Assembly (NCBI GenBank): GCA_000091205.1
Contig: AP006497.2
Source of the DNA: Cyanidioschyzon merolae
Lineage: Eukaryota
DNA: 64,000 nt
Reading direction: 5' to 3' (one strand)
The notes under the pieces are model-generated. The model did no database searches, was not told the origin of the DNA, and was given only the letters and a program-made list of their open reading frames with translations. The position numbers were made by a program, and so were the translations under genes. Below are positions 3,170 to 58,200 of this stretch, piece after piece (the stretch's first letter is position 1; the number at the start of each line of letters is the position of its first letter).

Positions 3170-3212
3170 GCAGGGCGCTGATGCTCGGTGCTCCCGGAGC
3201 GCGCTGCACGCA

Positions 3213-33135: not shown

Positions 33136-36100
33136 TCCTAAAGCATGAGCCGGTAGGTTTGCAGGCACGAGCGCTCTTGCCGCAGCCGCAAAGCGATAGC
33201 GGTATTCGCAATCGCGTACAAGGTTCGTGTGGTGACGCCAGACCGGCGTCGCTTGTCGTTGCCGCACATCCCTGCTGCAACGACAAGTCCGTACAATGAC
33301 GCAGATATTTTGGTTTGAAAGAATGTTTATATGGACTATGGATATCCAGATTGCGGGGCGGGTATTGGCTTCTGGGCAAGCGTCCATTAAACTGGACCCT
33401 ACCTCCAAGTTCCATAACTTGTACTTTCTTTCGGATGCACTGATCGGTTCGAACGTTCTATCAGACGCCGAGTACCCGCATTGAGCTCCTGTCTTTGCGC
33501 TTCTACCGTTGGAGTCGATGCATCCCGAAGACAGAGCGACTTTACCATACCACTGAAGGGCGTCGGCTCGAGATGTCGTGTACCCGACGCCAGGTCGTAT
33601 CTCGTTGTATGTTCGTGCTTGGAGAGACTGTGCAACAGGCCTGCTTTCGCGGCCTTTCGCGTTAGCGCAACCTAGCTCATACAAAGAATTCTGAATACCG
33701 AGTCACCGACTCGCAGTATTGTGTCGAATACGTCGTCGGTTCGTGTAGCGGGCCTGTGCTCGGCAAACACCGGTAATGAGTGCACGAATCGACGAACCCG
33801 CGCGCTCATCTGGTTTGCCGGACCCCCGTCCTGATATGTAGAAGGAGAGTTTCGTATCCACTAGTGAGTGATGTCGTTCGTATAAAGCGATGTCAGGTGC
33901 CAGGGCTGCACGCGATGTGAACGAGCGCCCTTATCAACTACATGTACATGTAGAGGATGCAGTCACGCACGGAGATCGCTTCGTTCCTGCTGCCAGCTTG
34001 GACAGCGTAAGCATAAACCTGTCAGAATGACGGCAGTTGCGTTCCAGCAGCAGGTTCACTGTGGTCCCCAGTGAATATCTAGTGTTTCGACACGGTATAG
34101 AGCCGAGGCTAACCACATCCCACGGATCCGCTCTTTGGTGCACGAATGAGTCCCTCTGGTACGAGCCGCGGACTTGAGCCTGCAGGCATGCTCACAAATT
34201 TTGAGACATTCATGTCATTCCACTTTCTTCTCAATGCTCGTATCAGCATAGAATTCTCGTCATATACGAGACCCCGGATACTGTAATCTTTATTTCGCAT
34301 TAGGGCGTTTGTGTTCCGGGATGAAACTGAAGGTTTGTTGTCTCTGCGCTATGATTTGCATTTTCTGTCGCGCGATGAAACGGTGCAAGTCGTTGACTTC
34401 TTCTGACTCTGGTCTTCGACAGCTCCGGAATGTTGCGGCACTCGTTGTCGTGATTGTTCCATGTGGTGCCTCATCTGGGAGCGTCTTCCCGGCATCCTCC
34501 ACGCTCTCAGTGCAGCACGCTGTCGATCGGAGAAGTATATGACCTTCTTTCAGTTTCGTTCGTTTCTTCATTGGTGATGGCCCTCGTCGTTATCACTTTC
34601 AAGTTCGTATGTCGACTTGCGCAACGAGTACACGCTTTCGACGTCCGGCATTCGCAGATGTCCACCACACGCACATGCAGTATTTCTGTAAACTTCTGTG
34701 TGGTCGCTTTCTATGCGCTGCATTTACGACGGGATATCGGACGCATGGCTACTGCACCCCAGTTTACGAACCAGATGACCGTCTTTTCGCCACTCGGCAT
34801 CAGAGGAGAATGCAGATCGCCTAGATTGCATTCTGGTCAAACGAGTGACGCAGAGCACCTCAGCTGCTGGTCTCCAGAACGAGCTCTGTGTTTCAGTTAT
34901 TCAGGGAGAACGCTCAAATTCGCTCGCATATGAGTATTGTCGCCTGAAATCGTCTTTTCGCAAATGGTGAGACGAGCAGTACCATCCTCTGTCTGTTGCC
35001 TCTCTTTTTGTGTTTTCTTCGCGCTGTAAACGAACCTCGCCTGGTGGTCCTCTCTTCTGCTGCTGGAATGACGCGTCTCTGACTCCGGACTAGAGTCTGA
35101 AAAGGTAAATTCGACGTCTGAAAAACCCGGGTCCACGCGTACGAATCTTTGGTTATCTTCCAGAATGCGGAAGACTTTCGTTGTCTCCGTTCTCGCCTAG
35201 AGATATTCGGCGATGCTCGAGGTTGAACCCTGACATCGTACCCGTGCGAGAGAAAACGGAAACAGAATTGACTGTCTATGGCTTCAGCAGCTTTGATATT
35301 GGAGTTTTTCTGGTAAACCTTCCTGTTCGTTGACTTACTCCATTTCATTTCGTTCTTTTCCTACTCATGATTTCATGGTGAGGTGGAGTTCCCATGACAC
35401 CCGAGAAACTGAAAGAAACGTAACCAATTGTGAAGCCAAGCATCCTCGGGCGGGAGAGCGAACGTCTTGGACGGCGTGTACCTCTTCTGCCTTATGAATC
35501 CCGTTCTCGCCAGGTATTCGCAGTGTTGACACCCTCTTCCAACGATTTCGTAGTACAGAGAAAATGCGAAACGTGTCGGAGACGAATGCTTCAGTCAGAG
35601 AGAATCCTTCGAGGGAATTCGTCTCCTCAAGTCTGCCGCGAGCTCGACAGCCAATTTCATCTTCGGTTTTCATTGGCGATCACTTCCGGTGAAATAGGAC
35701 GTCGAACTTTCGAACGATCCGGCGGGTGCCGCACAGACAAGCTCTCTCTCTCTCTCTCGAAACGCCCTCGATTTAGTTACCATGCATCAGCTTGACTTAA
35801 TGAACGACACGAAACCCGATATTCATCAGGACGTGATTCGTTTCTGCCGTCGCCATCGTGATGGGAAGCTCCACGTGCATCTGCGTCATTCCAAAGAGAT
35901 ACGCCTTCATTGACGCTCACTGTTCGTGCCCTTCGGTTTCTTCTTCATTTCGTCCGGGTTACAAAGCACCGAATTCATCAACGCTTAACCTGAGACTCGA
36001 GCTGATACTTTTCCTGCAGTTGTTTCGGTGCCTCTTGAAACAAGCGATGACACAAGCGTAAGAAAGTTCTCATTCAGGGAAGGCAGCACGTTTTTGGGAG

Positions 36101-41467: not shown

Positions 41468-41974
41468 TGCGATGCGCTGCTGCGCGCGATCATCCGAACG
41501 GGGGTGTGTGTGCGTTTCGCCGGTGTCCAGTGAATATGGGATGCTGTGCTGTTCGTATTGTCCCTATATGTTCAGATATTTGTGGGCGAGTGTTCGTTGT
41601 ACTGTCTCGATTGTACAGGTTCAGAGAAATGGGGCTTGTGGATGCTATAGACGTTTTAGGATGCATGATCGTGTTTGTTTGTTTGTGTTTTGGAGTGATT
41701 TCTCTTCGATGCTTTGTCGCTGACATTCGGAAAGACAGCGGCGTGAAGACGATTCGCGATAAGCTCGAGCTAGGGATCGTGTCATACTGGATATGATGAT
41801 GATGGTGATGCAGGTGCTGCGTACGAGGCTGCACGCTTCTCCATGTGCACGGACGGCGAGCGCTAGTCATGCATATTTCAGGTTTCGGATCTTGCCGATC
41901 CAAGGCAAGTCGTGTGCGCAGCACACGGTGCAGTTGTTGATGGACAAGGTCGAATAGTCATCGATGTGGTTTCT

Positions 41975-42680
41975 TGGCGATTTGCTCATCAGCTTGGTCC
42001 GGATATTCACTGAAGGTGTCGCGTGAAATGATCGATTCCGTTCGGAAGATAAATCTTCCTCTCTTTGTGGCCTTGAATGAAACGATTTTCGACGCTAGTG
42101 TGATATCTTTTATGGGATGCAATCGTGGAGGCTCCGATCTTTACTGTTTGCATGAAAAAGGGTCTTGAACTCGGGCTTGCGTCATTGGAGCGATAGGTTA
42201 CAGTGAAGTGCGCGTCGCAGCGTGTAACGAAGCGAACACAGGCGGATGGAGATTGTCGTATTCCCTTCCAGCTTGGATTCTTCTTTCAGTGTTTGTTTTA
42301 TCATGGACAACAGTGCATGGAAACCATCGATCGATTGGAGCAGCTTGTAAAGCGGCATGTGACGAAGCGAGCACTGGCGAATGGACTTTGGTCGTATTCC
42401 TCTTCAGCTTGGATTCTTCTTTCAGTGTTTGTTTTATCATGGACAACGATTCATGCAAACCATTCATCGAATGGAGTGTCGAGCGCTCATATGGCCGGTA
42501 GCCAGCGCACTCGCCGAAGGGGTCGCCCGGAACAATGCCGTATTCGTACGATACGGCACTGGGTGCATAGACGGTGTAGAGCATCTAGAAGAGCCCTATG
42601 GAGGCCTCAAGAGCATGTACCAAGCTATGAAGCAAGCGCTCACGAGCGACGGGGCGGCTCCTGGAGAAAGAGTTGTGGTG
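41975..42680. repeat. Dispersed repeat, copy A, internally repetitive (137-bp tandem duplication plus an inverted internal motif)
   Basis: The two copies are about 75% identical by eye: 42001-42180 matches the reverse complement of 54780-54960 (catgaaaaagggtcttgaactcgggcttgc against catgaaacagggtcttggagtcggatttgg). Within copy A, cgtattcccttccagcttggattcttctttcagtgtttgttttatcatggacaac is repeated in tandem about 137 bp later. Its reverse complement (atgaagcaagcgctc) recurs at about 42610. Confidence 0.6.
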
Positions 42681-44941
42681 GACCTACCGACGCATCTGAT
42701 CGCAGGCAAGAGCCGCCCCTGTGAAGAATCTGACGAGGTTGTCTACAACGAAGATGAAACAGGCAGTGGAATAGTGGAGAGCTATTTTCGCCTGTGGATG
42801 ACATGCGTCGCCAACATTTGGAAGCTTCGAAATCGGCACCTTGACGATGCCATCGACATCCTTCGACTGCTGACAACGGAGCTAGAGGTACAAGAGAGAC
42901 AGTCACATCGAAAGACGTCGAGAATATGGAGCAAAAATGAAGCAGTCGGAGAACAAGGCGGCGGAGACTGGTGCTGATCACAGTAAAACGGGTTGCAAAC
43001 TTTATCGTGTATGCGCGAGTTAGAGGACCCTCTCTATGCCATTCCGGCTCGGGCGTAGACTCAAACACCAACAGACATCTTGATCCGCGAGGCGTGTCTC
43101 GGCATGCTTTCGATGCTAGTAACGACAATTGATCTGCTTTCTGGCTAGTTTTTCTTTTTCGCAGGGTGCAGAATCGTTTACACAAAGCAGGTATCTCCGA
43201 TTGCGCAGTATTGTCAGCAGCCGGGAGAGCATCCATCTTTCCTCATCATACGCCCAGACGCTACCAGCTGCCGGCTACTGGAGACGCTCGTTTCGACAGC
43301 CGCTTCGTCAGCGTTCATGGTCGCTGAGGTGCATCAATCTCACCCGGTGCACGCCTGCTGCTGGCTCTCAGAAACGACTGCTTCGTCCCTGCACAGAGAC
43401 ACCCATGTTACGCCAATCGCAGACAGGTCGTCCGTTATGGAATACGTTCGCGACCTATCGACTGATATTCTGGGTAAAATGCAGGTTGGGAGCGCTGCTC
43501 GGCGAAAGGACGTCTTCACCAGACCCGCGAAGGCGTCACCTCGTAGACAAACGGATCGGGTCGGTGCATCCAATGTATCAGGCGGAAAGCTCTCTTCAAC
43601 CCAACCACCTCTGGAGACGAGGCTCTGTTGTCCATCTTCTGACAAGTCCGGTTTATCCTTTGTAGCAACGTGTGCCCTTGATATGCAGACATACTGCGAC
43701 AGTCCCCGAAGCTGTACTCTAGAAAATGTCTCTCGTCATGCGACGTTGAAGAGAGTCTGGCTATCACGATTAGGCTTTGCGGCAACCGGTTGCAGAGCTC
43801 ACAACGCCCCGCAGGCCTCTACAGAACGCGAACGAAAAAATATGATCAAAAGTACCAGGATTCATGGGCACTTATGGTGATCATGGAAGCGGCCGCAGTT
43901 TGTCGAGACAATGCCTTCGATGAGTCGCTCATGCATCCTCGATGAAACATAACAACATGTGCATCGTTCACGGGACATGCTTCAGCCATGGTTTTCGTAC
44001 GATCTACGATCGGCGCACCCGCCTAGATACTTTACAGGCTTTGTCTTTCGTGGAACAGGTAATTCAGTAGGATGTTTGCATACCAGAAGGCAACGGATCG
44101 CTCGCTGGCACTAGGCATGCACCAAGAAGACGTTCAGCAACGGAACGTGAGTTCCCCTGCTAAAGACGTCGAGCAGCTCCAATTTGGATATCGACGGACG
44201 ATGTTCCTCAGCAGCTCTTTCAAGCTCGTTCTCCTCTGCATTGCTTGAATGGTCAGTGACCTCGCGTCCACAGCAGCAAGCCCAAGACGTATATGAACGA
44301 GCTGCCGCTGACATAGCTGAGTGATAAGCGGCTAGTTGCCATCCGTACGCCAACATCAGAAAGCATCAGCATCGCTACCTTGTATACTTCCATCGTCGAG
44401 GTCGAGCGACCAGCGCAGATATCCTTGCGAACATCTGCAACAGAATTCGGTAAAACCGGTATCAACAAGTTGCTGATCTCCTAAACAAGGAAAACCATCA
44501 TGCTAAGCTACTGCTCTGGAGAGCAGCGCATGCTCCAAGCTCGCTGCGTTCAGCCATTCAGCATGAGCATAGCGCCACCGTGCTTGCTGCAGATATAAGA
44601 ATCCCGCCTATCTCGATAAAAGTGGCTGCTATGGGTGTACGCTGCCATCCGGGTCGCCGCACAGCAAGCGCACCACCAGCAACAGACGATGGAGCGTTAC
44701 TGCACCTGCGAAACAACGTTGCACATGCGCTGTGTTCAGGTTGTGGTGACGTCGCAGCACTAAAGCCGCGCCACGAAAGGAAGCAGCAACGAAGGCTATA
44801 GGCTCTGGACACTAGCACTGAGGATAACGTTAGATTAGAGTTGCACCCCTGAGACGAAGTTCTGCACGGTGAACGCTGTACGGAGCGAGCGGCGCCAGCT
44901 GCTGGGCGCAGCGGCCAGCGTTCCACTTCCAGTCACAGCGC

Positions 44942-47698
44942 ATGGGTCGGGCTCGGGAGCCCGCGTATCGTAAGAGGGGTTTTCAACGGACCTGGATCAG
45001 CAAAGTTTATCTGGCAAACTTAGGCGAGTCATCGGCGGTGGATGAAACGCAGTCCCCAAACCTCGGTCTAACGTGCTGGGCACCGTCGATATGTCCTGCT
45101 AGCCAGCACGGACGTGCTGGCGCTTTCCTCCCGCTGGCTTCTGGACCAATTGTTGGCCTCCTGAGGCACCGCCCGGACCGCAGAGAGCGCCTCCAGACGA
45201 GCTTGAACGCTCGGAGCGCCACCGCGGAAGCGAAACGCTTCTTTCTCCAGCGGCGTCGATGCCACCATGCACCGCAAGCCTTTTCTAGGGCGCTTCATAC
45301 ACCGCCGAGAGGCCAGCGCACGCTGCATGACTCCCAGTTTTTGGGAAGAGCAAGTGAGTTTCACCGACCTTGTCTGCTACGGCGACAAGCACGTGCACCA
45401 TGGTCCTTGTGCATGGAGCAAGGCGACCGCGCTTCCGCTTCGGAGCGTACAACTCCTCCGCGTACCGCAAATGACGTTCAGCAAGGCATCCAAGAGGCAA
45501 GTCAGCGAAAAGCCGGTGCACGAAGACACCCGGGGCGGCGTTTTGCTGCGTTTACGCAGATGCTGGCCCGTCGTTCGACCTACCGCGATGGCCTCGTGCT
45601 GCTCCTGCTCGTACTGCTGGCATATGCCATGGCGGGAACCACGAGTTATGCCATAACGCAGCGCTATGATCCAAGTGCGGTACGAATATCGTGCGACCCG
45701 CGCGTGCTACCGGCGTACGGTTTCCAGTCGCTCATGAGACTGGTACTGGCCTACGGATTCTCACTGGTATTCTCGTTAATCTACGCGTACATTGCGTACA
45801 GGGCCTCGTTTGCTGCGCAAGTGCTGCTTCTCATTATTGACGTTTTGCAATCCGTCCCTATTCTCGCTTTTGTCCCAGCAGCAGTGCTGGGCCTGATCGC
45901 CATGTTTCCAGGGCAACGCATTGGGGTCGAGCTGGCAGCGATGCTGTTGCTCTTCACCTCGATGGCGTGGAATATGCTTCTTGGCTTTTACCAGTCCCTA
46001 ATATCCATACCGCCGGACCTGATGGAGGCAGCCAGAATACTGCGACTCTCAGCGTGGCGGCGTTTTTGGTTGCTGGAAGCGCCTTCGGGCGTGTGCTCCC
46101 TCGTCTGGAACTCCATTATCTCCGTGTCCAGCGGGTGGTTCTTTCTGATAAGCATCGAGAGCTTCTCACTGGGGCCCGGCAGAGAATATCGTCTGCCGGG
46201 CTTGGGAAGTTTCCTTGCTGAGGCTGCGGATCGAGGCAATATGCGCGCGATCTTCTGGGGTCTGTTCACTGTAGTGTCGCTTATTATCTGCATCGATATG
46301 TTGATCTGGCGTCCGCTGATCGTCTGGAGTGAGCGCTTCAAGTTCTCGACGAACGCCAGTTCCGGCATCGGGGCGATCAGTTCGCTGCAGAGGAAGGCAT
46401 CGCGCTCGCCTTCGTCGTCGTCGTCTGGGCTGCGTTCGTCACTGGGGTCGGACGCTAATTTCGCGGATGAAGACGACGACCGCGAGAACGATAACTACGA
46501 CGACGACGACGACGATGATGATGAGAATGACGCGTCTTCTTTCGCGTGGGCTGGTGCACCACGTCGGCAGTTCCGTGTTCTGGAGCTTGTCCAGATACCG
46601 GATGCAACCGCGAGTGCCACAAGCAGCGCGCCCGGACTCGCGATCATGCACAGCATCGAAGGTGAGTCTGCTCCCGGAGCCGAGCAGGTTGTCATCCAAC
46701 AACGCGAACTGGACGCACCACGAAGCATCGTGTTTGCATATTTCCAGCGCTCTCCATTGATGCGTGCCGTTCACCGGCGATTCTTTCTGCCTCTCTGGCA
46801 GAAATTCATTGATGCAGACGTGATCTGGGAGCGTGCAACGGAAACAACTTCCCAGACGCTGGCACTAGCCTGGAAGCGCGTGCATCAGCCGCATCTGTTG
46901 CTGCGGCTCTGGGGCTTTATGGTTCGTTTGCTTACATGGAGCAGTGTGCTGGGCATCGCCTGGTTGGCGTTTCTGGCGTTTCGCGTTGCCCACCACGCGC
47001 TACGGATTCTGCAGACGATTTCGTGGCGCTCGTGGATCACCATTCTGAGCTGTGCTGGACTGACCTTTGGTCGTGTGCTGACGGCTTTAGCGCTCTCGTT
47101 ATTATGGACAGTTCCACTGGGGGTTGCTGTCGGGTGCTCACCGGCACTGGCTCGCGTCCTCCAGCCGCTAGTCCAGATCGCTGCTTCCGTGCCAGCGACG
47201 GCAGTATTCCCGTTTCTGCTCCTGGGGTTAGCGAATTTCGGCGGGCTTGGCTTGCAGATTGGCTCGATCCTCTTGATGATGTTCGGCACGATGTGGTACA
47301 TTCTGTTCAACGTCATTGCAGGTGCTGCAGCGATTCCCGCGGAGCTCTGGGAAGTTGACGCGGTTTACAACAAGGCCACAGACTCGTGGCTTGCTCGCCA
47401 GTGGAGACGATGGCGCTTTCTCATCCTGCCCGGTATCTTCCCATACCTCATCACTGGTATTGTTACGGCTGTTGGAGGCGCGTGGAATGCGAGCATCGTT
47501 AGTGAGTACGTCCAGTTCCAGGGCCAGATTTTATCGACCAAAGGTCTGGGGGCGCTCATATCGAACGCAGCGGCTCGTGGTGATTTACCGTTGCTGTTAG
47601 CGGGGACCCTGGTCATGTCTAGTTTGGTGCTGCTCACGAATCGTTTTGTCTGGGCGCCACTCTACAAGTTAGCGCGTGAACGCTACACGCTCAACTAG
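44942..47698 (+). CDS. Bacterial-type ABC importer permease: two fused BPD_transp_1 (binding-protein-dependent transport inner-membrane) domains, NitT/TauT- or FbpB-like, joined by an acidic linker
   Basis: EAA motifs occur in both halves: MEAARILRLSAWRRFWLLEAPSGV in the first, and ELWEVDAVYNKATDSWLARQWRRWRFLILPGIFPYLITGIVTAVGGAWNASIVSEY...GLGALI in the second. There are about 6 TM helices per half. A poly-Asp/Asn linker (DEDDDRENDNYDDDDDDDDEND, encoded by (GAC)n) separates them. The N-terminal 206 aa are R/A/P-rich low complexity, so the real start may be the Met at 45560 (MLARRSTYRDGLVLLLLVLL). No ABC ATPase or solute-binding protein ORF is present in the window. Confidence 0.8.
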   Translation: MGRAREPAYRKRGFQRTWISKVYLANLGESSAVDETQSPNLGLTCWAPSICPASQHGRAGAFLPLASGPIVGLLRHRPDRRERLQTSLNARSATAEAKRFFLQRRRCHHAPQAFSRALHTPPRGQRTLHDSQFLGRASEFHRPCLLRRQARAPWSLCMEQGDRASASERTTPPRTANDVQQGIQEASQRKAGARRHPGRRFAAFTQMLARRSTYRDGLVLLLLVLLAYAMAGTTSYAITQRYDPSAVRISCDPRVLPAYGFQSLMRLVLAYGFSLVFSLIYAYIAYRASFAAQVLLLIIDVLQSVPILAFVPAAVLGLIAMFPGQRIGVELAAMLLLFTSMAWNMLLGFYQSLISIPPDLMEAARILRLSAWRRFWLLEAPSGVCSLVWNSIISVSSGWFFLISIESFSLGPGREYRLPGLGSFLAEAADRGNMRAIFWGLFTVVSLIICIDMLIWRPLIVWSERFKFSTNASSGIGAISSLQRKASRSPSSSSSGLRSSLGSDANFADEDDDRENDNYDDDDDDDDENDASSFAWAGAPRRQFRVLELVQIPDATASATSSAPGLAIMHSIEGESAPGAEQVVIQQRELDAPRSIVFAYFQRSPLMRAVHRRFFLPLWQKFIDADVIWERATETTSQTLALAWKRVHQPHLLLRLWGFMVRLLTWSSVLGIAWLAFLAFRVAHHALRILQTISWRSWITILSCAGLTFGRVLTALALSLLWTVPLGVAVGCSPALARVLQPLVQIAASVPATAVFPFLLLGLANFGGLGLQIGSILLMMFGTMWYILFNVIAGAAAIPAELWEVDAVYNKATDSWLARQWRRWRFLILPGIFPYLITGIVTAVGGAWNASIVSEYVQFQGQILSTKGLGALISNAAARGDLPLLLAGTLVMSSLVLLTNRFVWAPLYKLARERYTLN

Positions 47699-48209
47699 GA
47701 GCAGCGCAGTGACGCCGATCCAGGTTGTTTCACTGCTAGGATTGGAGGCTCTTTGTGATGATAGATCCCCTGGTATCTGTGTTCGATACCTGTAGTGGTG
47801 CAACTTGCAAGACTAGACCCTAACTTTAAATCAGTTCTGTGTTTAGTACATGGCTCATGAATGACTAGTGCGTTCTTCGGGATTAGACGGTAAAATGCAG
47901 CACTTTGGTTACTCCGGGCGCTAGGCTTGCCCAGTGACAGTCTTCCCGATGACAGGTGCTTCAATACAACAAAGCGCATCCAGAGAGCGATGCAAGGCCT
48001 ACCTTCTCAGCATGATCGGTGTCGGGAAACGCCCTGCATGACAACGTGTCGTCAACCGTTATACCGGGGGCGGTACGGGAACGCTCCGTACGCGAAGCCA
48101 TCGTCATGCTGCGCGTTTGCTCTGCTTCTGCAGGTCCGAATCATCCATGCAACATATACAATCAATAACTTTTAGCATATGCGTCTCCGGATGCAAACAC
48201 AATGCATCA

Positions 48210-49088
48210 CTAGCGACTTTTTTGCTGGTGTGAAGACGCACCCCGTCGCTGCGGCGCCCTCGCCCGGACAGCTGCAGATTTCAATGGGTTCGGGAAGAAC
48301 GCGTTTCGGTTCAGTGACTTGTACTCGGCAAAGTTCTCCAAATACCACTGATGGTTGCTCCGTGCCCTGGGGTATAAGTTCGAAAACGTCCAAAGCGCGA
48401 ATGAGAACGCTGCCCACGTCTGTGCGGCGATCGCAAAACCCGTCCATTCCACAAACTCAGAGAAGTAGTTCGGCGCGCTGACGTAGCGATACAGACCACC
48501 ATATGGAATAGCGTAACGTTTCTCTTTGATCTCTTCAGGGTTTCGCCGCAACGCTCTCGTGATCGCGTCGCTATGCCAGTTGCCAATCAAGCCACACACC
48601 CAAAGCAATAAGCCGCTGCAGAATGCCCAGTCCAAGGACCGACGCGAGCGAATGACCAATTCGTAAACGAACAGTGCTTTCGCATTTAAATAGGTGTTAA
48701 TGACGCAGAACAGGATAGCTGTCGAAACAACAGTGAAGGTGGTAGGCTTCGAGCCTCCACGCATCCGCAGAGGGAACACAAAGGCGCGGTTCGCATAGTG
48801 AACAAGCCAACAGAACGCCAACGTAACAGTCATCCACTCCCGTTCATCAAACCCGAGCTTCAAGAGTTTGTCGGTACGCTGACGAAGCCAACGAGTCAGG
48901 TACACGGCCATAATCAGGAACGAGGGGCTCTCTTGTATGATCCAGCCCAGGTCGCTGCGCAGCGTAGGGCCCCAGCCGGTACGCAAATGCCGCCCGTATG
49001 GTGCTGATACGAGGAAAAGCACTGGAAACACAAGTACGGCGAGAGCAATCCAGCTCCATAATAGTGCATCATCCGAAAGAAGGTTCAT
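48210..49088 (-). CDS. Steroid 5-alpha-reductase family (3-oxo-5-alpha-steroid 4-dehydrogenase, DET2-like) membrane protein
   Basis: N-terminal ...SAPYGRHLRTGWG (cf. DET2 APYGRH) and the C-terminal family signature YVSAPNYFSEFVEWTGFAIAAQTWAAFSFALWTFSNLYPRARSNHQWYLENF. The ORF is 292 aa and multi-TM. Confidence 0.85.
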   Translation of the reverse strand: MNLLSDDALLWSWIALAVLVFPVLFLVSAPYGRHLRTGWGPTLRSDLGWIIQESPSFLIMAVYLTRWLRQRTDKLLKLGFDEREWMTVTLAFCWLVHYANRAFVFPLRMRGGSKPTTFTVVSTAILFCVINTYLNAKALFVYELVIRSRRSLDWAFCSGLLLWVCGLIGNWHSDAITRALRRNPEEIKEKRYAIPYGGLYRYVSAPNYFSEFVEWTGFAIAAQTWAAFSFALWTFSNLYPRARSNHQWYLENFAEYKSLNRNAFFPNPLKSAAVRARAPQRRGASSHQQKSR

Positions 49089-49483
49089 TATGAAAGGGGG
49101 CGATACCGCTTCACGTTCAAAACACCACGATCCAATTCTGTATCATAGCCGTATGTGAAGCGCGAGGTGATATGCGGTGCGGCGCATCATCAGAGACGCC
49201 ATCCCTGCACGAGATCGATGCGCCTGAACGGTTTCAATCTGTATATTTCTTGACATGATGGAAGGGAATGGACATGGCATGAACGGATCCAACACAGCCA
49301 TGAACGCCCATGATATAAATTAGAACATCAATGTATCTGTTAGTACAAGGAAGACAGTCGGTTGACGGATGCACCCCTGGCGGACGCACTGCGTACCCGC
49401 TGCAGCGACTGTGCAGAACGTTGCCTGCACCTCCGGCAGCTGGTCTCTTTGGTTACCGTGGTTCGCTCTTCACAGAGTCAGCG
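49089..49483. promoter_or_regulatory. Putative bidirectional promoter between the steroid-5-alpha-reductase and TUG/UBX genes
   Basis: Head-to-head arrangement with about 400 bp between start codons, using the TUG start at 49484. Positional inference only. Confidence 0.3.
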
Positions 49484-51586
49484 ATGGTGTTCTTGATTGT
49501 GGATTTTAGCGAAGTAAGCCGGGGTGGCGTGAAAGCGCGGGTCCAGGTTACACCGAACAGCCTGCTGTCGGAAGTTCTGCGACAAGCCTGGGAACAGGTG
49601 CAGACAAGGTGCGGGAGCGCTGTTGGCGACGCTGCCGAGCCTCGGCTCGCATCTTTACCGGCAAACTGGGGACTTCGGCATGGGAAACGCTGGCTAGACT
49701 TGTCGCTACCTTTTCGGCTGTCGGGTTTATCGGCTCAGGCCCGGATAGTTGTTGACGAGCGCAGTGTCAGTGAAACGGCGAAGACGAGCGTTACTGGAAA
49801 ACCTGGACAGACAGCAGACCTCGCTCAGGGCGTCACACCTGCGCATTCGCTGACTGTGGCTGTGCAGTACGAGAGCGACCCCCCAGAGCGCTACATCGCA
49901 CCTGCAGTATTGGAGGATACGCTCTGGAGCGTGCTCGAGCGGGCGAATCCGGAGCGTCTGTGGTGGTGCCGCCCCTACTTGCTAGTCGCACGGTACCTGG
50001 AGACTGCGCACTATGGAGTCAGCCATTTTCGAAGCCTCCGCTTACGAGATCTGGGCCTAAGTCCGGGCACGCGTCTCCTGATTCGAATACAGTGCCTCAC
50101 CACGGATGACGACTCCGGTGGCTGGGAGGAGGTGGAAGCGTCGGCAGGGGCGGCTCGATCGCCGGTCGCTTCCAACAGGCACGATCACGCGGATGCAACA
50201 GGCGGTTCTGATATCGCATCTGTGGACAAGGTGAGCAGCGGTCAGGCGGCGACGCGAGAATCACAGGCAACTGCCGATTTGCATCTGCAGCATGTCGAGC
50301 AGCAAAGTACGCACCTGGTTTTGGGAAATCCAGGAGCGAAGTCCGCTTTCGTGGATGCCCCAGCACGCGTGCTCGACACTGTCTCCCGAACGATCGAGGA
50401 GCCAGCAGCATCATCTCCGCAAGGAGAGCGCGTGCCGGTTACTGGCTCCAGTGATCCCTCGACTGCCAATGGTGATCGGCAAAGAGACACGCGAGCCGAC
50501 GCGAGCACGAACCCACGGACACCGTCGCCTTCAAGTCGAGGCGCGAGGCCGTCCACTTACGCTCTTGTCGAGATGCACGAAGTGGACACCTCTGTCCCGA
50601 AAGTCGATGGAGTCGTAGCTGAGCCAGCGGATGCACGAAACTCGGCCTCGTCGGTGAACACGGAATCAGGTACAACCCAGATACCTATACAGGGAGCGGA
50701 GTCAACCTCGGAGCTGCTGATTCCAGGTCGCACTGCATCTGACGCCCCTGTTTTAGAGACGAACGGAAATGCAGGAGCACCTGCAGGTCAGGTGCCTGAG
50801 CGGTATGTCCGTTTCTACCTGCCGACGACGATCCGCTTTGATGCGCAGCTCCTCGACCTACCCGATACTTTTTACGATCTAACACCGGGGGAACTGCGAC
50901 GGATCCTTCATGCACAGCAGCGACAACAGGAAGAAGCAACCGTTCTCCGAACCCGCAGGCATACAACTGCTTCACGAGCAGGCGCAACGCAGCCGGAGCA
51001 GTGTGTGGTACGTGTCCGGCTTCCCGATCAGACGGTCATTGAGGGTCGTTTCTGGTGCAACGAAAGCCTAGACGACCTGTACGCTTTCGTGCGGCGCTTT
51101 GTAACGAGCACGAACGGGGCCTTGGACGCATTCAAGCTCTATCAAACGCCACCGAAACGGGTGCTGCATGCCGGGCCAACAACGCTGCACCAAGTGCAAC
51201 TCTGCCCAGCTTCTGTGCTAGTCCTGGTTCCGTCAACATCGAATACGTATGTTACTCTGGGCTTGCGCCCAGAATTTCGTTCTCGCTTGGAGAAGTCCCC
51301 GCTGGAGGCTGCATTTGCGAAGGAGGTTGCACAGGCAGAGGCGCTGCGTCGCGAGTATGCTGGTGTCATTTCGTCACCACATACCACGCCACCGGAGGCT
51401 GCCGCGGCGACCGCAGACGGCACGGCAGCCAACGCCGGCAAGCAGATTCGTTCGGAAGATGCAGGTACCGGAGATCGCGAGCCGGATGCTTTCTCGAAGG
51501 CGGATAGAGCTCGCAACGACGCTGAGCAGCAGTTGAAGCAGCGGTTGCCCAAGTGGTGGCGGCGTCCTCCAGGTGGGCGTTCGTGA
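49331..51586 (+). CDS. TUG/ASPL (ASPSCR1/UBXD9)-like UBX-domain protein, a p97/Cdc48 cofactor. Probable start at the Met at 49484.
   Basis: The N-terminal TUG-UBL1-like segment reads MVFLIVDFSEVSRGGVKARVQVTPNSLLSEVLRQAWEQV (cf. ASPL NGRRHTVKVTPSTVLLQVLED). The C-terminal UBX domain reads CVVRVRLPDQTVIEGRFWCNESLDDLYAFVRRFV...FKLYQTPPKRVL (cf. RIQIRFPDGHVLQAQF...LYAFVRE...LFTAFPRR). The middle is long and disordered. Confidence 0.65.
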   Translation: MYLLVQGRQSVDGCTPGGRTAYPLQRLCRTLPAPPAAGLFGYRGSLFTESAMVFLIVDFSEVSRGGVKARVQVTPNSLLSEVLRQAWEQVQTRCGSAVGDAAEPRLASLPANWGLRHGKRWLDLSLPFRLSGLSAQARIVVDERSVSETAKTSVTGKPGQTADLAQGVTPAHSLTVAVQYESDPPERYIAPAVLEDTLWSVLERANPERLWWCRPYLLVARYLETAHYGVSHFRSLRLRDLGLSPGTRLLIRIQCLTTDDDSGGWEEVEASAGAARSPVASNRHDHADATGGSDIASVDKVSSGQAATRESQATADLHLQHVEQQSTHLVLGNPGAKSAFVDAPARVLDTVSRTIEEPAASSPQGERVPVTGSSDPSTANGDRQRDTRADASTNPRTPSPSSRGARPSTYALVEMHEVDTSVPKVDGVVAEPADARNSASSVNTESGTTQIPIQGAESTSELLIPGRTASDAPVLETNGNAGAPAGQVPERYVRFYLPTTIRFDAQLLDLPDTFYDLTPGELRRILHAQQRQQEEATVLRTRRHTTASRAGATQPEQCVVRVRLPDQTVIEGRFWCNESLDDLYAFVRRFVTSTNGALDAFKLYQTPPKRVLHAGPTTLHQVQLCPASVLVLVPSTSNTYVTLGLRPEFRSRLEKSPLEAAFAKEVAQAEALRREYAGVISSPHTTPPEAAAATADGTAANAGKQIRSEDAGTGDREPDAFSKADRARNDAEQQLKQRLPKWWRRPPGGRS

Positions 51587-52991
51587 ATCCTTCTGTTCGG
51601 GTCAGGAAATCCACAGCTTTGCAGCTTCTGACTCGTGTTGCGTGCAGCGAGGGCAACTCAGCCGGCATGGACGCCCTCACAAACACGCCCATGCACACAC
51701 GCAAACGCACGTCTACGCCCCGGACTAGAGACAGAGCACTCGGTTGCCGGTACGGAGTCATCACGTCTACACATGCGGTTTGCGCCCAGTGCGCGTCTGC
51801 ACATATCCACGCAGGCGAAACAGATGCCGAATTTGAGACGCTCTGATCAGTCACCAGAGCGCTCTGTCGCCGGTAAACTTTCGTTGCGAGAGTCGCTACT
51901 TTTGCAGCAACTACCGCAGACATGAGTATAGTTTCTTTTACCCCGCAATTGCCTGCGTTTCCGCTACGCAGCATGGAACGCTCCCGTTGCATAATCCAGG
52001 CTCAGCTGCGCGGTGTCGTCCAGTTCGAGCCTCTGTCGCTGTCTTAGATTCTAAACCGGCAATGTATCGCTTGTTTAAACATCGCCGAAGCCTACAATAC
52101 AACAACCGCTCGGCAACAGTGGCGACACGTACAGCGTCTCTTGCTCGACGCCCATTCCAGGAGACGTCTCCGCACGATGTCTCACTATCTCATGATGCGG
52201 ACGAAGCGTCCTCATTCGGTCAGACGTTCTCAGGTGGCGGTTATGGCGCTGCTGGACCCCGAGCATTCTCGCATTCGCGTACGCACTGAGTGCCAGCATA
52301 CGATCCTGGGACGCGCTTGGCGCCTAATCCGCAAGCTTCTTTCATGGAGTCGGATTTATGCATCAGACCAGGATTCCCCGAGAAGGCATTTTCAGCTGTT
52401 AAGCAAGAAAAAAAGAGCTAAGCTCTCCGGATCCATCAGCATTCTACGTACCCCAGAGTGGTTTCCAAGTCTGGAAAGAAAGATAGACCAGGCTGGTGCG
52501 ATCGGTGTTCTGGGTGCAGCGTCTTGTGCTGACGCCTCCGGTAACGCGGAATGCGCCGGTTCCGCCACGGTTTTCGCACGGCGACGTCACGGCTTGGGCG
52601 AATGCCTCGTACGGTTTCTTTCATGACCTAGGACCGTTGTTTCTGACCAAGGATCCCCTAGTGACTGTCACCTATCGATATCGAAGGAAATGTCGTGAAC
52701 GGGTGAAGACGCGCAGTCTCAGCTCCGGGGCATCGATGCACGGAGCAGCAGCATAGAAGCTGGACGTATCTGGTCAATGATGATCCTATCCGTTCTCATG
52801 CGTGACAATGGTAGATAAGATCCTAAACATTCATAAAATTACAAATAAGTATAATATAATACATATTCATAAAGGAGCATGGGCGCCGTCGCAGCGCGCA
52901 CGTCGTCAGCGCATCGCAATCTCTGCCTCAGTGCACCGCTATTAGTTTGGACGCTAACGTCAAGTTTTCGTGTTGGTTAGTGTGACTGCGC

Positions 52992-53468
52992 ATGACCGAG
53001 GTGCAGACAGAGCGTGCGTTCCAGAAGCAGGAGGCGGTGTCGTTGAATGGGCCGGCAGTGAGATTCCATGGTGCCCGGAAGCGCTGGTACAAGTCTATCG
53101 GGCTCGGGATCAAGATCCCGCGCGAAGCCATCGAAGGCACGTATATCGACAAAAAGTGCCCCTTCACGAGCAACGTGAGCATCCGTGGCCGTATTCTTCG
53201 TGGCGTAGTTGTGAGTACTAAAATGACGCGCACAGTCATTGTGCGACGGGACTATTTACACTGGGTGGCCAAGTACCGGCGGTACGAGCGCCGGCACCGC
53301 AACATTCCGTGCCATGCCGCGCCCTGCTTTCGGTTACAAGAGGGAGACATTGTTACCATTGGCCAGTGTCGACCTCTGAGTAAAACTGTGCGCTTTAACG
53401 TTATCCGAGTTGATCGATCTGCTGGCGGAAAAGACAGGACTGGCAAGAAGATGTTCACGGGTCTATAA
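52992..53468 (+). CDS. RPS11: Cytosolic ribosomal protein S11 (uS17)
   Basis: Near-colinear with eukaryotic RPS11: [13 protein letters not shown]...[69 protein letters not shown]...[23 protein letters not shown]. 158 aa, intronless. Confidence 0.9.
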
Positions 53469-54559
53469 GTGTTGCACATAGTGCGCAGGCGTGGCGAACG
53501 CGTTCCACGTAACCGGCGTCGCGAACATACACACACACTAGGAACCGTTAAGGCACGAGGGCGCCTAGATCGGAACAGGTTTCTGGAACTGATATGGGTA
53601 CGTCGGCAGTTCGTGCGGATAGGTTTGGGACAATCTTGAAGCGGTATGCGCGAGTCTGGTCGAGAGGCGTAGCTACCAGTTCACGGGCGCAAGCGCGTCC
53701 GACGAGACCTCTCACTGCCACGCCCAGAGGATGCCTCTCGTGCGGGCGTGAAGGATCACACATGTTCGTGTGTTGGGACCTACTTTTCTGCGTCTGTGAA
53801 GGTATGGCGAACGCTGTGGTGTGGGCGTTGTGCCCGATATAGGAGATGCATCGCGCGGTATCTGTTTGATGCTGGTTCAAACGTCTCTTTTTTCCAGCGG
53901 CGGAAGTATCCGATTCTATGTTGTTTTCCTCGATGGTGCAGTAATTGATCTGCCGACGCTCCAGAACCGCCCAGAGACACTGCGGTTACGCGCATCGCTC
54001 ACACTACATCCAACATGAGAGTTTAGAGTGCAATAAAAATCGCAGCACCGCACACATACACCTAGTGCAGAATAAAATAGGACGGGCCTAGTCACCTAAA
54101 ACGAGTGTACCCTCTGAAGCTTGCATTCCTTTGCATTGTCATGAACATAAGCGTTTACGGTTTGTAGGCGACAATTTCCTTTGCTTCCTACTCATCTGCG
54201 ATTTGAAACGCGCAGGTCCCTCACGTCCGTCCAGTTCCGTGTTCAGCAACCAGGAGATGTTGATGGTAGCTGTACGATCCCGACGTCGCTGATTTCGAAT
54301 GTTGCCCGTGTACTTCATGCGCAGGCGGTAGTTGCCATCTATACTGCAGTCGATATCTGCATTTGCGTTTTATACACGCTTGGAACGTGGTTCGCGGCGT
54401 TGACACTTGACTTTGGTTAGGTGTTCCCTCTGTGTCCACCGATTCTCCATGTCCTTCGATGGCCGGTCTGTGACTCGTCAGGGCTTCCTGCATCGCTCGA
54501 CACATGCCCTGCATGGATACCGGAGGCTCCCTCGATGCTCTCCTCCGACTCCCGGTCAG

Positions 54560-54990
54560 GTGCCGCACCCCACGATTACGCGCTTGTTCGATGCGAGCGC
54601 CTCGATGATACCTGCCTGCTGCATGCACAAGCGCATGATGTTCCACCCGATAATTGATTTGTGGAACGCGATGTCGTCCATGATGAAACAAGCACTGGAA
54701 GGAGAAGCCAGGCTGGACAATACCCCGAGAAATTTCGATCCATCGACGCTCGCTTCACTTGAAGCGATGGCTCCGATGACCCAAATCCGACTCCAAGACC
54801 CTGTTTCATGCAAGCAGAAGTGACGACAGCCTCCGGGAGCGCATCTCATGAAAGGTATCATGCCGCTGTCGAAAGCCGTTTCGTCGATGACTCCATAGCC
54901 AGAGGGACTTGTCGTTCGAATGGAATCGATCACGCGACGCGGGTTGTTCAACAAGCTTTCAGCATGATTGTGTACTGAACTCCTCAAGGG
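54560..54990. repeat. Dispersed repeat, copy B (inverted relative to copy A at about 41975-42680)
   Basis: The reverse complement of 54600-54960 aligns with 41990-42380 at about 75% identity (gtgatcgattccattcgaacgac against gaaatgatcgattccgttcggaag; ...catcatggacgacatcgcg against ...tatcatggacaacagtgcatgg). Short ORFs on either strand translate to related peptides in the two copies: FMGCNRGGSDLYCLHEKGS and FMRCAPGGCRHFCLHETGS; PAWILLSVFVLSWTT and PAWLLLPVLVSSWTT. Confidence 0.6.
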
Positions 54991-55285
54991 ACGACTTCGG
55001 GTTTGTTCCTTCGTCCATCAAGCGGCGTGAATCGTTGCGCCCATGAGTTGCCAACGAACGGAAAGATCAACAACTTGAAGCATGCGTGATTCGAGCATGC
55101 TTTTCATACGGAAATGAAAAGCTCAGACGCTTGAAAATGTACCTTGGATCATGGTCTTGGTCATGTTACGAACGTCTGTTCGACGCTTACGCGAATCACT
55201 CTGATTCCGATGACGTCATGAATTCCAGGGGCAAGGCATCGAAGACGTCACTCTGGACATACGACCGAGAATCCTAGAACTACAC

Positions 55286-58200
55286 ATGAATCCTCAACGC
55301 ATATTTCTGCACTTTGCAAGTCGAGACTTTTGCTCTAACCCATTCGGAAACAAAAGTCACAAAGCAGGAAGCGAGCATCCGGTACACTGCCCTATTCCAG
55401 TCTGGCACACAGACCGATGCAGCAGCGCCCCGATTCGGCAGCGGAACAGAAGCGCCGCTCCTGGACACACTGCTCCGTTTGTTTTTGAGCGCTCGCCGAG
55501 CTCCGGGGAATGCGTTCCGGGAACGATCATGACATCCCAGCGAGAACTCCTTCGTTACGTGGAGAGTGATTTGCGGTCTCTGGTAGCGAAGCTGGGGAAA
55601 CGAAAAGTTGAACGAGCGTTTGTCGAAGATCTCCCGTTTCTTACGGAGCGTTTCTCGAGCTGGAAGAGTGCCGTGGAACGCGTACTGACGCAGTTGCGTG
55701 AGGATGATACGCAAGCTCGTCTTTCGTTCTCACTTTCGATCGACCTGGTGGGTCACGTGCTCATCCACAACGTACAGTCAGTGGAGAACTGGCGTAAAAG
55801 TGAAGCAAGTACGCTTCTTGCACTGGGGCTTCTGCACCGTCTCGCAAGCCAGGCAGCGTTGCCAAGCCACCGCGTCGCAGACGTCGTCGCCTTGCTGAGC
55901 TATTTCGTTCTCAGTGTTCAGAAACTGGTCCTTCGAAGCGAGTTTTCGAAGCGTCGTTGGTTGATTTATGGCGAGCGCAACGGTGCCCAGGTTCCGGGAA
56001 CGAACTCGGATCAATCGGACGCAACGGACTCGTTTTCACGTCGATCCTCGCCCGGAACAGTATCTTTGGTGGAAGAGGCCCTCGAGCAAGCCACCTGCGA
56101 GCAAACAGCTGCGGTCGGACAACGTGCCACCGAAACCCAAGTGCTGCCGGGAAACGACCTAGTCTTGGTCGAGCGGCAACTGCTACGAGTCCTCCAGGTC
56201 CTTTTCGAAATACCATCTGTGCAACACAGGGCCGGTGCAGCTCAGGAATACGATGTAGACGCTTCGAAATCAGACTCAGCGGCTAGTGTCTCCAAAATGT
56301 GCCAAGCATCCCTACCACAGCGACTATTTACGCTCCTGACGCTGATTGAGCAGCTTCCCGGAGTGACTGCAGTGGTTGCTCGCACTGCAGCAGCTGCGTT
56401 AGAGCGATACTGCACAGCATTATTCGAGGATCGTCTCTGGAGAGAGCAAGTCGCGATAGCTTTCGTGGAGGATCTCTGTTTGCTGACGCTGGAACGGCCG
56501 CCTGTTCACGGCTTTGGGACGCTCTTGTCCCTGCAGGTCCAGACGAACACGAGCAGTCCAGTCGAGTTGCCGGGTGCTTCGGCCTCTGCCGCAGAGCGCA
56601 CGTCATCATCGCTGCAGCAAGAGCGACGAGCACAGGCGTCGCCCGAGGCCGAGGACCTTGACGAAGCCCGAGAGGGCCATCCAGAATCGCTATCCGCCGC
56701 TCAAGTGACGTCCACTGGTGCGATGCAACAGAAGGAAACGTATTGCCTGGAAGTGATCACCCCAAGCCCTGATGTTATGACGTCGCTGCTGGCGGAAGCG
56801 CTGGGCAGGGCGATGCGTGGTGGTCTCGCTCCCCAGGCTTGCCTGCTCAAGCGTCTTTTTCCTTTCGTCGAAGCACAGCTGAATGAGGCCGAGCTCTCCT
56901 GGTCAATATGCAGTCTCGCAGCCGCGTTAATCCAGGCACCGGTGGCCTCGTTTGGCGCCCTGCTCGCGTCACTTGCTGGAAGGATGCTGGAGCAATTAAG
57001 GGTCTCGATGGATCCGAGCTATTCATCATCTGACACGAATCCTAATCAAGTTCTGTTGATGCATCATCGCGCACTCTTGTTGATCGAGACTTTTCGCGAT
57101 GCATTGCTTACCGGAGCGTCCACTGCAGAGGACCGTGCTTTTATCAGCAACAGCAGCAGCAGCAGCAGCTCCTGGTCACCACAAGCGCTACTCCGATACC
57201 TGGAGCGCGAATCAGATAGGACGTTCGCGTCACAAAACGCTGCTGCTGGAGCAGGCGATACGACCTCAGCGCTGGGTACGGAACAAAAATCGTTGCCTTC
57301 AGTCGATGAGCGACGTCGTCTTCGGGAGGACGTTGTTACGTCCCGAGAAACAAGCGCGGAGGCCTTTTCAAAATTGCCTGCGTCGGAGACCGGGGGTATA
57401 CTCACTCAGTGGGTGGCGATGCTGCAGCTGTGTGTCACCACCGGCACATCGATGGTGACGGAGCTGCAAATGCTGCCCACAGGTCCGTTGCGGCATCAGC
57501 GCCCGCTACTTCGCCAACTCGGGCAACTTATCGAGGAGCCCAAGCATAGAAACCTGGACGGCGAACTCTGGGGGCAGCTTACGAGCGCGGCGCTGGGTCT
57601 GCTTTTCGTCTTGTTGGAAGCCACCGATCCCGTGGCGGATGTGGACTTTCTGCGACGCACCTGGCCGGACTTTTTGACGGCGTTTGGAGCTTTGCTCGCA
57701 CGTGCACAGCAGGTTCCGGCGGTGGTGCTTCAGCCGCTCATCGAACGGGGCATGGATTCTTTGCTCCAGCGTCTGGCAGTTGTACGGAGCTCTGTGGACG
57801 CGCCCTCGATCATGAATGACTCCAGCACCGACGCATCTGGGCTTCTTGGTGGCTCTGCTGGGCAGCCACCTGCGATGCATGGCTCGACGTCGGCACTGGA
57901 ACCCTTTGAGACGGTGTTCATCTGCCTGTGTCGTACCCTGCGGCTGGTGCGAAGTACACGATCCGCCTCTGCTTCTGCTTCCGACAGCGAGGCTGTGCAT
58001 GTGTTGACCTGCCTTGGGCGCGTTTTACAGAGCAACTTGCAGCGCGCGCTTTCGACAATGCACGAATCGGAGTACAACACGAACACACCGCAAGCTGTGG
58101 TCGAACGCAGGCCGCTTTGTAGTTCCTGGAGTCCCAATACTTGGCTTGCTCTCGTGGAGAGCATTCTAATCGCAGGAGACGACGATCGTGATGCTGCCTC

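Follow-up and report, generated by a model that had tools for sequence, protein, structure and literature searches.

Inverted repeats flanking a 12-kb gene block of Cyanidioschyzon merolae as probable dead insertions of a dispersed, non-autonomous Tc1/mariner-IS630 family with a Fanzor1 remnant

The window considered here, a stretch of 64,000 nucleotides from contig AP006497.2 (assembly GCA_000091205.1), is nuclear DNA of Cyanidioschyzon merolae 10D, a red alga with a compact and nearly intron-free genome; its G+C content is 56%, and both strands carry genes. A first-pass annotation had drawn attention to a repeat that stands in inverted orientation on either side of a 12-kb block carrying an ABC permease, SRD5A, TUG/UBX and RPS11, and had offered a composite transposon, a pair of inversion breakpoints or two insertions of an element resembling a miniature inverted-repeat transposable element (MITE) as explanations. 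The last of these is essentially right, for the repeat belongs to a dispersed family with 27-bp terminal inverted repeats (TIRs), TA ends and no functional transposase. The window holds three copies of it (A, B and C), which are very probably independent, ancient and dead insertions of a non-autonomous Tc1/mariner-IS630 family, the block between A and B being host DNA of the ordinary kind. The extents of the copies, as mapped by self-blastn and an nhmmer profile with the termini placed by the TIR consensus of the family, are as follows:

23422-24799, plus strand: copy C, 1378 bp, between a phosphoacetylglucosamine mutase gene (minus strand) and a bZIP gene (plus strand)
41516-43057, plus strand: copy A, 1542 bp including an internal duplication
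54057-55415, minus strand: copy B, 1359 bp, in the gap between RPS11 and Mon2, its 5' end overlapping the first codons of the mechanically called Mon2 open reading frame (ORF)

The inverted homology between the Vps4/ABC permease gap and the RPS11/Mon2 gap is real and far above chance: self-blastn aligns B with A in two colinear pieces (54634-55245 with 42347-41703, E=2.5e-41; 54091-54756 with 43028-42364, E=2.6e-38). Its particulars differ from those first given. Identity, put at about 75%, is 60–62% by blastn and 58% across the whole element, and reaches 70% only in a block of 198 nt, the best inverted arms returned by a repeat search (42020-42217 / 54744-54941). The unit, described as 400–700 bp, is roughly three times longer, with mapped lengths of 1.36–1.54 kb; the gaps holding A and B are not the only large intergenic spaces, several further gaps of 1.5–3 kb being found in the window; and the pair is not exclusive, given the presence of copy C. 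This third copy, which initially emerged as a self-blastn segment at 23564-24650, lies in direct orientation relative to A and inverted relative to B (E=1.5e-61 against B). A DNA profile built from the three found no fourth copy inside the window, of which they make up 6.7% (4.3 kb in total). None of them has a long ORF, no ORF is common to them, and the mismatches between them are spread evenly over the three codon phases with no period-3 pattern, which rules out coding paralogues. A known RNA family was also set aside, there being no Rfam match in the window.

The transposase ancestry of the repeat comes into view as its ancestor is rebuilt. The longest stop-free remnant of a transposase core in the window, which lies in copy B, scores 18.6 bits against Pfam DDE_3 on its own (E=0.0018); the score climbs to 29.2 bits with the consensus of the three window copies (E=9e-7), 40 bits with eight copies and 42 bits with 19 (E=1.1e-10), where the gathering score is 28.6. 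The three-copy majority consensus also matches the NCBIfam IS630 transposase NF033545 (E=6e-7). Upstream of DDE_3, the 19-copy consensus has weak helix-turn-helix (HTH) matches that are both under their gathering scores (HTH_Tnp_Tc3_2, E=2.9e-4; HTH_33, E=9e-4), and this stretch can be aligned colinearly with the HTH part of intact relatives. When 1.84 billion representative proteins were searched exhaustively with profiles of fragments taken from the window, 120 matches came up at E<=1e-3, a few of which are intact proteins of 260–324 aa with HTH and DDE_3 (E=1e-23 to 1e-30). The intact relatives (P0072, P0081, P0067, P0129 and P0153) have the catalytic triad IDETGF / LMDNVAFHK / PPYSPWFNPIE in a DD35E arrangement, with 35 residues separating the second D from the E in P0081. 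In tblastn comparisons, intact DD35E proteins from metagenomes match the eight-copy consensus over about 250 aa at E=1.6e-36 to 8e-41, as against 1e-5 to 1e-20 for single copies. The far better match of these proteins to the rebuilt consensus than to any single copy establishes the repeat as the decayed gene of a transposase from the Tc1/mariner-IS630 (ITm, Pfam DDE_3) superfamily. The earlier remark that the element has no transposase-like ORF is accordingly right insofar as no ORF is intact and wrong in substance. The recognizable transposase features of the window copies, the motifs being placed in B by alignment with intact transposases, are:

54559-55017, minus strand: longest stop-free transposase-core remnant in the window (copy B), 153 codons
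54868-54891, minus strand: first Asp motif of copy B, VIDETAFD
54655-54690, minus strand: second Asp motif of copy B, CFIMDDIAFHKS
23943-23966, plus strand: first Asp motif of copy C, NIDDVNFD; the second Asp motif of this copy is lost to a 1-nt deletion
42217-42340 and 42352-42476, plus strand: internal tandem duplication of copy A, with a period of 136 nt and about 85–88% identity

The duplication in A doubles the second-aspartate motif (CFIMDNS at 42294-42314 and CFIMDND at 42430-42450) and breaks the frame. Other searches yielded little: word-indexed protein searches with the copy B ORF and with the three-copy consensus returned copy B itself as the sole match, a PDB sequence search returned nothing relevant, and the viral contigs held neither a match to the TIRs nor a relative of the intact transposase. 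The intact DD35E relatives are found on the loci L026–L028 (contigs k141_719607, Ga0307947_1000075 and Ga0307972_1052277), which have 46–49% G+C; in the 12.8 kb read from the 53-kb contig behind L027, nearly all ORFs are without a Pfam match, and the host could be another alga or a large virus.

The repeat is widely dispersed. Around 105 of the 120 profile matches are short pseudo-ORFs rich in R, S and C that form distinct decayed ORF clusters, i.e., further decayed copies. A single metagenome scan with one 10-residue pattern confirmed 55 loci, and collapsing the same locus across samples left 25 distinct genomic copies, 19 of them full length with flanks; contigs fetched for several of the profile matches yielded more copies, including two in one 20-kb locus. 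Thus, the family has at least 100 copies scattered through the C. merolae genome. A repeat occurring at a large number of genomic sites was what the first-pass annotation had named among the things that would refute its reading, as the mark of an ordinary MITE, and the approximately 105 ORF clusters and 55 metagenome loci bear this out. Nearly all copies cover positions 3-1320 of the profile, indicating that the unit is discrete, and conservation in the 19-copy consensus of 1380 bp falls to background immediately beyond both ends. At its 5' end the consensus has the TIR TACACCCGTGTCAGACTAGAATGGAAC, and the reverse complement of its 3' end is TACACCCATGTCAGAATAAAATGGAAC, with 24 of the 27 positions complementary. 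The TIRs are visible only from the 19-copy alignment: in single copies, none rises above shuffles in B and C, and the one in copy A that exceeds shuffles is internal, not terminal. Both ends of the consensus are TA, which fits the TA target duplication of the Tc1/mariner superfamily; the dinucleotide would then represent the target-site duplication, inseparable as it is from the ends of the TIRs. In terms of MITE criteria, the TIRs and the high copy number conform, whereas 1380 bp with long coding remnants exceeds the usual bounds of less than about 800 bp and no coding capacity. Alignment to the family TIR consensus (local alignment in the case of B) places the termini of the window copies thus:

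41516-41565, plus strand: 5' TIR and subterminal remnant of copy A; 3' TIR remnant at 43025-43057
55365-55415, minus strand: 5' TIR and subterminal remnant of copy B; 3' TIR remnant at 54057-54086
23422-23472, plus strand: 5' TIR remnant of copy C; 3' TIR remnant at about 24775-24799

The anatomy of the rebuilt consensus bears on the non-autonomous state of the family. Its frame 0 is an almost unbroken protein, with a putative HTH and DDE_3, that keeps the first two D motifs (IDETAF and FIMDNIAFHK) and runs up to FIMDNIAFHKSSIEWNSVRLRVQRTEYSPRGSPRRSP and a stop, where intact relatives have TPPYSPWFNPIEN; at the PPYSPWFNPIE site of these relatives the consensus has EYSPRGSPRRSP and then the stop, so that the complete catalytic triad is absent. 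The stop after SPRRSP is common to many independent copies when these are aligned with the intact proteins, which have YSPWFNPIE there. Since many copies have the same stop, the catalytic glutamate was already missing from the element that was amplified, which makes the family non-autonomous.

From about nt 860 of the consensus, a second frame takes over with PVIVGYGTGRGNGGGHRGEPSVPVKGMYRAMKQAF...VVDIWEHLTTAKCHRC...CMKC...NRDFNAAINILRLL. It comprises a zinc ribbon and an RD motif (TTAKCHRC, 26 residues, CMKC, 10 residues, RDFNAAINIL), as does the C-terminal signature of TnpB/Fanzor proteins, which has been given as [TS][TS]-x-x-C4 zinc finger-x(5,50)-RD (Bao and Jurka 2013, PMC3627910). Its top Pfam match is PF07282 (Cas12f1-like TNB, formerly OrfB_Zn_ribbon), which rises from 19.8 bits with eight copies to 32.5 bits with 19 (E=9.7e-8; gathering score 26.3). 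By blastp, the segment aligns with the Fanzor1 C-termini of PUl-1 (E=1e-6) and CMe-1 (E=2e-5), in a database of these two sequences whose E values are not evidence. The Fanzor part amounts to about 165 C-terminal codons between the transposase stop and the 3' TIR, with neither the N-terminus nor the first RuvC aspartate of a full-length ORF. A YGTG..GEH stretch was at one point considered as the transposase YSP..NPIE motif, a reading that was rejected as the 19-copy consensus shows the Fanzor (V/I)(A/V)YG(A/T)G motif in the other frame. The traces of this part in the window are:

42786-42872, plus strand: Fanzor1/TnpB C-terminal remnant of copy A, FRLWMTCVANIWKLRNRHLDDAIDILRLL, equivalent to the second zinc-ribbon CxxC and the RD-x-NAAxNI motif in the consensus
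54244-54330, minus strand: Fanzor1/TnpB C-terminal remnant of copy B, YRLRMKYTGNIRNQRRRDRTATINISWLL
24522-24617, plus strand: Fanzor1/TnpB C-terminal remnant of copy C, with ERYHQHHSTAV in one frame and ATINIIQLL in another (24589-24615)

This anatomy suggests the following history as the most likely and the simplest. The parent would have been a mariner-type transposon with both a transposase and a Fanzor1 gene, from which an internal deletion would have taken out the last part of the transposase and the bulk of Fanzor while both element ends were retained. The resulting 1380-bp master would have had, in order, TA and a 25-bp TIR; the putative HTH and first two Asp of a DD35E-type transposase; the C-terminal ~165 residues of Fanzor1/TnpB in the other frame (VIVGYGTG..., TTxxCxxC...CxxC, NRDFNAAINIL); a short 3' region; and a TIR with TA. 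A transposase supplied in trans might then have spread this deletion derivative to at least 100 sites in a single burst, following which all copies would have decayed neutrally to about 27% from the consensus, and the opposite orientation of A and B in two intergenic regions would be due to chance. The copies are today 68–77% identical to the consensus (Jukes-Cantor 0.28–0.41), while identities over 190 pairs within the family have a mean of 57.4% (sd 1.9, range 52–62%). Such tight pairwise values amount to a star phylogeny, as expected from one old burst and neutral decay. Among the window copies, the values are 58.2% for A and B (63rd percentile of the 190 pairs), 56.1% for B and C and 53.9% for A and C, and the nearest relative of B is at another locus. 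As the identity of A and B is unremarkable and B is closest to another locus, A and B are not sister copies.

This last result bears directly on the notion of a composite transposon, in which A and B would be IS-like arms that mobilize, or once mobilized, the 12-kb block, the bacterial-type ABC permease being its cargo. The geometry is formally compatible, A and B being inverted with their 5' TIRs pointing outward, and the block does hold a permease of the bacterial BPD_transp_1 type. Nevertheless, the arms are no closer than random family pairs, a third copy lies 17 kb off in a family of at least 100 dispersed copies, and the element has no functional transposase, which together leave this reading unsupported. 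Moreover, the base composition of the block equals that of its surroundings, and its other genes (RPS11, UBX and SRD5A) belong to the core eukaryotic housekeeping set. The comparison of strains that the first-pass annotation had suggested speaks to the same effect: ten independent contigs from hot-spring metagenomes, representing strains about 99.2% identical to the window, to which the comparison pertains, span the block, its genes and repeat copies being present with order and orientation unchanged in ten of ten cases, and ten more of the same identity that cover copy C and its surroundings are likewise collinear. A composite origin is thus extremely improbable.

An inversion, in which ectopic recombination between then young and similar inverted copies would have flipped the block, can be weighed against the same data. 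Inversions can arise through inverted repeats, and A and B are suitably oriented; however, no orientation polymorphism is seen in the ten strain contigs, copies at 58% identity cannot recombine now, and no mark of exchange is evident, with each copy being colinear with the consensus from end to end. Together with the third copy outside the block and the lack of sister status of A and B, this makes the inversion reading very unlikely, if slightly less so than the composite one. The block with the ABC permease, SRD5A, TUG/UBX and RPS11 is host DNA of the usual kind and forms neither a mobile nor a foreign island. An apparent rearrangement at window position 25129, seen in one metagenome locus (L016), was also discarded, being instead a chimeric assembly join to AT-rich sequence: positions 13729-15282 of this locus (Ga0506616_00041) switch at 25129 from C. 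merolae to AT-rich sequence in which a TPR protein is encoded. The contig underlying another locus (L019) stops at 25127, almost the same position, which suggests a GC-rich simple repeat near 25127-25129 that breaks assemblies rather than a rearrangement.

Several observations do weigh against the history of a trans-mobilized deletion derivative and its neutral decay. No autonomous partner with the same TIRs was found, and no Fanzor gene stands beside the intact relatives on their short contigs (46–49% G+C). The copy number, which rests on ORF clusters and contigs from metagenomes rather than on a count over the whole genome, is a lower bound. Only 12 of the 19 individual copies have TA at the 3' end and 5 of the 19 at the 5' end, and the Fanzor remnant is significant in the consensus and in none of the window copies singly. 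Further, the strain polymorphism of the window copies is lower than pure neutrality predicts, with 10.5 variable sites per kb in A–C as against 18.6 in other intergenic DNA of the window (Fisher p=2.6e-4) and 8.8 in coding sequence; copy B in particular (54051-55299) has 7 variable sites in about 1.2 kb among 7–8 strain contigs.

These polymorphism data feed an alternative in which the copies, at least B and C, are functional non-coding paralogues exapted as regulatory DNA or RNA genes, possibly as the scaffold of a Fanzor omega RNA. In its favor, polymorphism in the window copies is about half that of other intergenic DNA and indels are nearly absent from them, copy B sits between flanks (53471-54090 and 55276-55504) with 30–35 variable sites per kb, and all three copies end 50–150 nt from the start of the adjoining gene. 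Guide RNAs of TnpB/Fanzor systems are encoded at the 3' end of the element, and the 223 nt at the 3' end of the consensus fold somewhat better than shuffled sequences (z=-2.56, with 4 of 200 doing equally well), a result that would fit the location of a guide RNA while proving nothing. On the other hand, 13 other copies, each present in two to four strains, have 7.8 variable sites per kb, making them as polymorphic as other intergenic DNA (7.2) and more so than long ORFs (4.6). The copies differ from each other by 43% and have no conserved blocks beyond common ancestry, Rfam yields no matches, the window offers only small counts, and diversity is low overall in the surroundings of copy C. Purifying selection across the family, at which the window data hinted, was not reproduced in the 13 other copies and has been rejected. 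The family as a whole behaves neutrally, and the low diversity seen in B, and less markedly in C, is a local oddity of a small sample. Exaptation in this sense is quite improbable. A related conjecture, marginally less improbable yet still a long shot, is that the master retained the part specifying an omega (guide) RNA scaffold, from the 3' end of the Fanzor ORF to the right end, and might have lived as a guide-RNA-only parasite that used both transposase and Fanzor nuclease in trans, with copies like B perhaps still expressed or exapted.

The preferred reading, that of dead insertions of a mariner-type family, has also to be set against the abundant repeats already known from C. merolae. Nozaki 2007 (PMC1955436) counted 26 elements of class I and 8 of class II, with transposons at 0.7%, besides an interspersed 3.2-kb element in 253 copies, the truncated ORF of which resembles WSV486 of WSSV (white spot syndrome virus). 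Bao and Jurka 2013 (PMC3627910) described a Fanzor1 in WSSV (SWv-1) and, in C. merolae, CMe-1A, an unclassified, TIR-less Fanzor1 element of 3169 bp with about 150 copies, plus TE-N2_CMe with about 70; CMe-1A/TE-N2_CMe is evidently the 253-copy WSV486-like element of Nozaki 2007. It might be supposed that copies A–C are pieces of it, as both families are abundant and decayed and have truncated ORFs and Fanzor-like sequence (PMC1955436, PMC3627910), and as a CMe-1A 3' end lies immediately next to a member of the mariner-type family at one locus (L024). By blastn, however, the published 3169-bp consensus matches neither A, B and C nor the consensus of the family, which refutes the identity at the DNA level, and the similarity of the Fanzor proteins is confined to the C-terminal motifs (24% identity); there is next to no probability left for this supposition. 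CMe-1A/TE-N2_CMe and the mariner-type family do have in common their genome, Fanzor-derived sequence, under-annotation and a similar age (CMe-1A about 80% identical to its consensus, the mariner-type family 68–77%), while the former is 3169 bp long, unclassified, without TIRs and without DNA similarity to the latter, which has clear TIRs and a transposase remnant. At L024 (10001-11420), the CMe-1A end, with the Fanzor C-terminus KRMEFANKDFNAAINIIRCAV, runs into a mariner-type copy 5'-truncated to begin at profile position ~281, a nested or adjacent insertion of both families whose junction has been called as one read-through ORF of 342 aa (P0090). The window also has CMe-1A fragments at 3203-4733 (minus strand; 78.7%, consensus positions 90-1624) and 33316-33572 (plus strand; 80.5%, consensus positions 4-255), which account for a self-blast match between 33404-33572 and 4733-4566.

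The closest parallels are to be found among the mariner/Tc1-type elements with both transposase and Fanzor1 that are known from oomycetes and algal viruses, namely (Bao and Jurka 2013, PMC3627910) PUl-1 and PUl-2 from Pythium ultimum and PGv-1 from Phaeocystis globosa virus. Like them, the C. merolae element has a mariner-type DDE transposase at the 5' side, Fanzor1 at the 3' side, TIRs of 24–33 bp and TA ends, and its consensus remnant aligns with PUl-1 through the GYG/AYG motif, the zinc ribbon and NRD-x-NAA-x-N. The differences are in scale and completeness: those elements are 3.6–4.4 kb long with 1–8 copies, whereas the C. merolae element is 1.38 kb long with at least 100 decayed copies and cannot be autonomous, keeping just about 260 transposase codons (without the catalytic E) and about 165 Fanzor codons. 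With the DD35E group of IS630/Tc1/mariner (ITm) elements (PF13358, NF033545) it shares the DDE_3 domain behind a putative HTH, the motifs IDETxF and (F/L)(I/L)MDNxxFHK, short TIRs, TA ends and a length slightly above 1 kb; it departs from them in that neither its copies nor its consensus have a third catalytic residue or an open frame, and the Pfam score is modest (42 bits), as only a reconstructed ancestor can be scored. A third parallel is with MITEs and other internal-deletion derivatives, e.g., the Stowaway type of Tc1/mariner, in being non-autonomous with TIRs kept, a high copy number from one burst, a star-like phylogeny and preferential insertion or persistence in intergenic DNA close to genes; 1.38 kb with long recognizable coding remnants is nevertheless above the usual MITE size. 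For C. merolae, P-MITE reported no MITEs (PMC3964958). No published description of the 1380-bp family was found in the literature searched, a scope that left Repbase outside, and the family is apparently undescribed, although it may include the eight "bacterial-like" transposase relics of Nozaki.

C. merolae has been a textbook case of a genome poor in transposable elements. Three copies in 64 kb, at least 25 distinct copies and about 105 ORF clusters contrast with the eight class II elements on record (PMC1955436), and these counts indicate that ancient DNA-transposon relics are clearly under-annotated in this alga. In the rebuilt element, a Fanzor1 gene is also tied to a transposase of the mariner type within a red alga, thereby adding a data point on how Fanzor genes travel. 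As for the 12-kb block as originally posed, the outcome is negative, in that the repeat is real but its explanation ordinary, and the rebuilt element can be seen as a side result of modest specialist interest.

There are also consequences for annotation. CYME_CME048C on chromosome 5 of 10D (BAM79278.1; P0188), listed as a hypothetical protein of 334 aa, falls in the same 90% cluster as a decayed copy (P0041; profile E=7.5e-14) and is probably an annotation artefact rather than a gene. Within the window, sequence of the transposable element enters the mechanical ORF starts of Mon2 and of the gene resembling phosphoacetylglucosamine mutase (AGM1-like): these ORFs run, in the regions 55286-55504 and 23301-23457, into copies B and C, respectively, and the long N-termini in the two gene models deserve distrust. 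The gene names given in the first-pass annotation agree with the Pfam labels on the strain contigs (Vps4, BPD_transp_1 permease, Steroid_dh, TUG-UBL1/UBX, Ribosomal_S17 and a large Mon2-like protein). The genes concerned are:

23457, minus strand: limit reached by the mechanical ORF of the AGM1-like gene, which gene callers on strain contigs start at about 23300
41467, minus strand: start of Vps4, the left neighbor of copy A
44942-47698, plus strand: ABC permease, 918 aa, the right neighbor of copy A
48210-49088, minus strand: ORF of 292 aa identical to BAM81621.1/XP_005537657.1, the probable 3-oxo-5-alpha-steroid 4-dehydrogenase of C. merolae 10D
52992-53468, plus strand: RPS11, neighbor of copy B
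55286: ATG of the mechanical Mon2 ORF, which gene callers on strain contigs start about 73 codons later, at about 55505

The ABC permease has its bacterial-type BPD_transp_1 domain behind a long N-terminal half of low complexity, and in NCBIfam it comes closest to the SaoP, NtrB and TauC permeases, with E=5e-17 to 1e-8 and every score well under its cut-off; it may be a plastid-targeted endosymbiont gene or a later transfer, and the analysis found no connection between this gene and the transposon copies. Elsewhere in the window, a tandem array at 13376-14002, with a period of 96 bp and units about 87–91% identical, lies inside the overlapping ORFs 13357-14010 (minus strand) and 13460-14188 (plus strand), and its region is the sole 1-kb bin of the window with a strong negative GC skew (-0.26).

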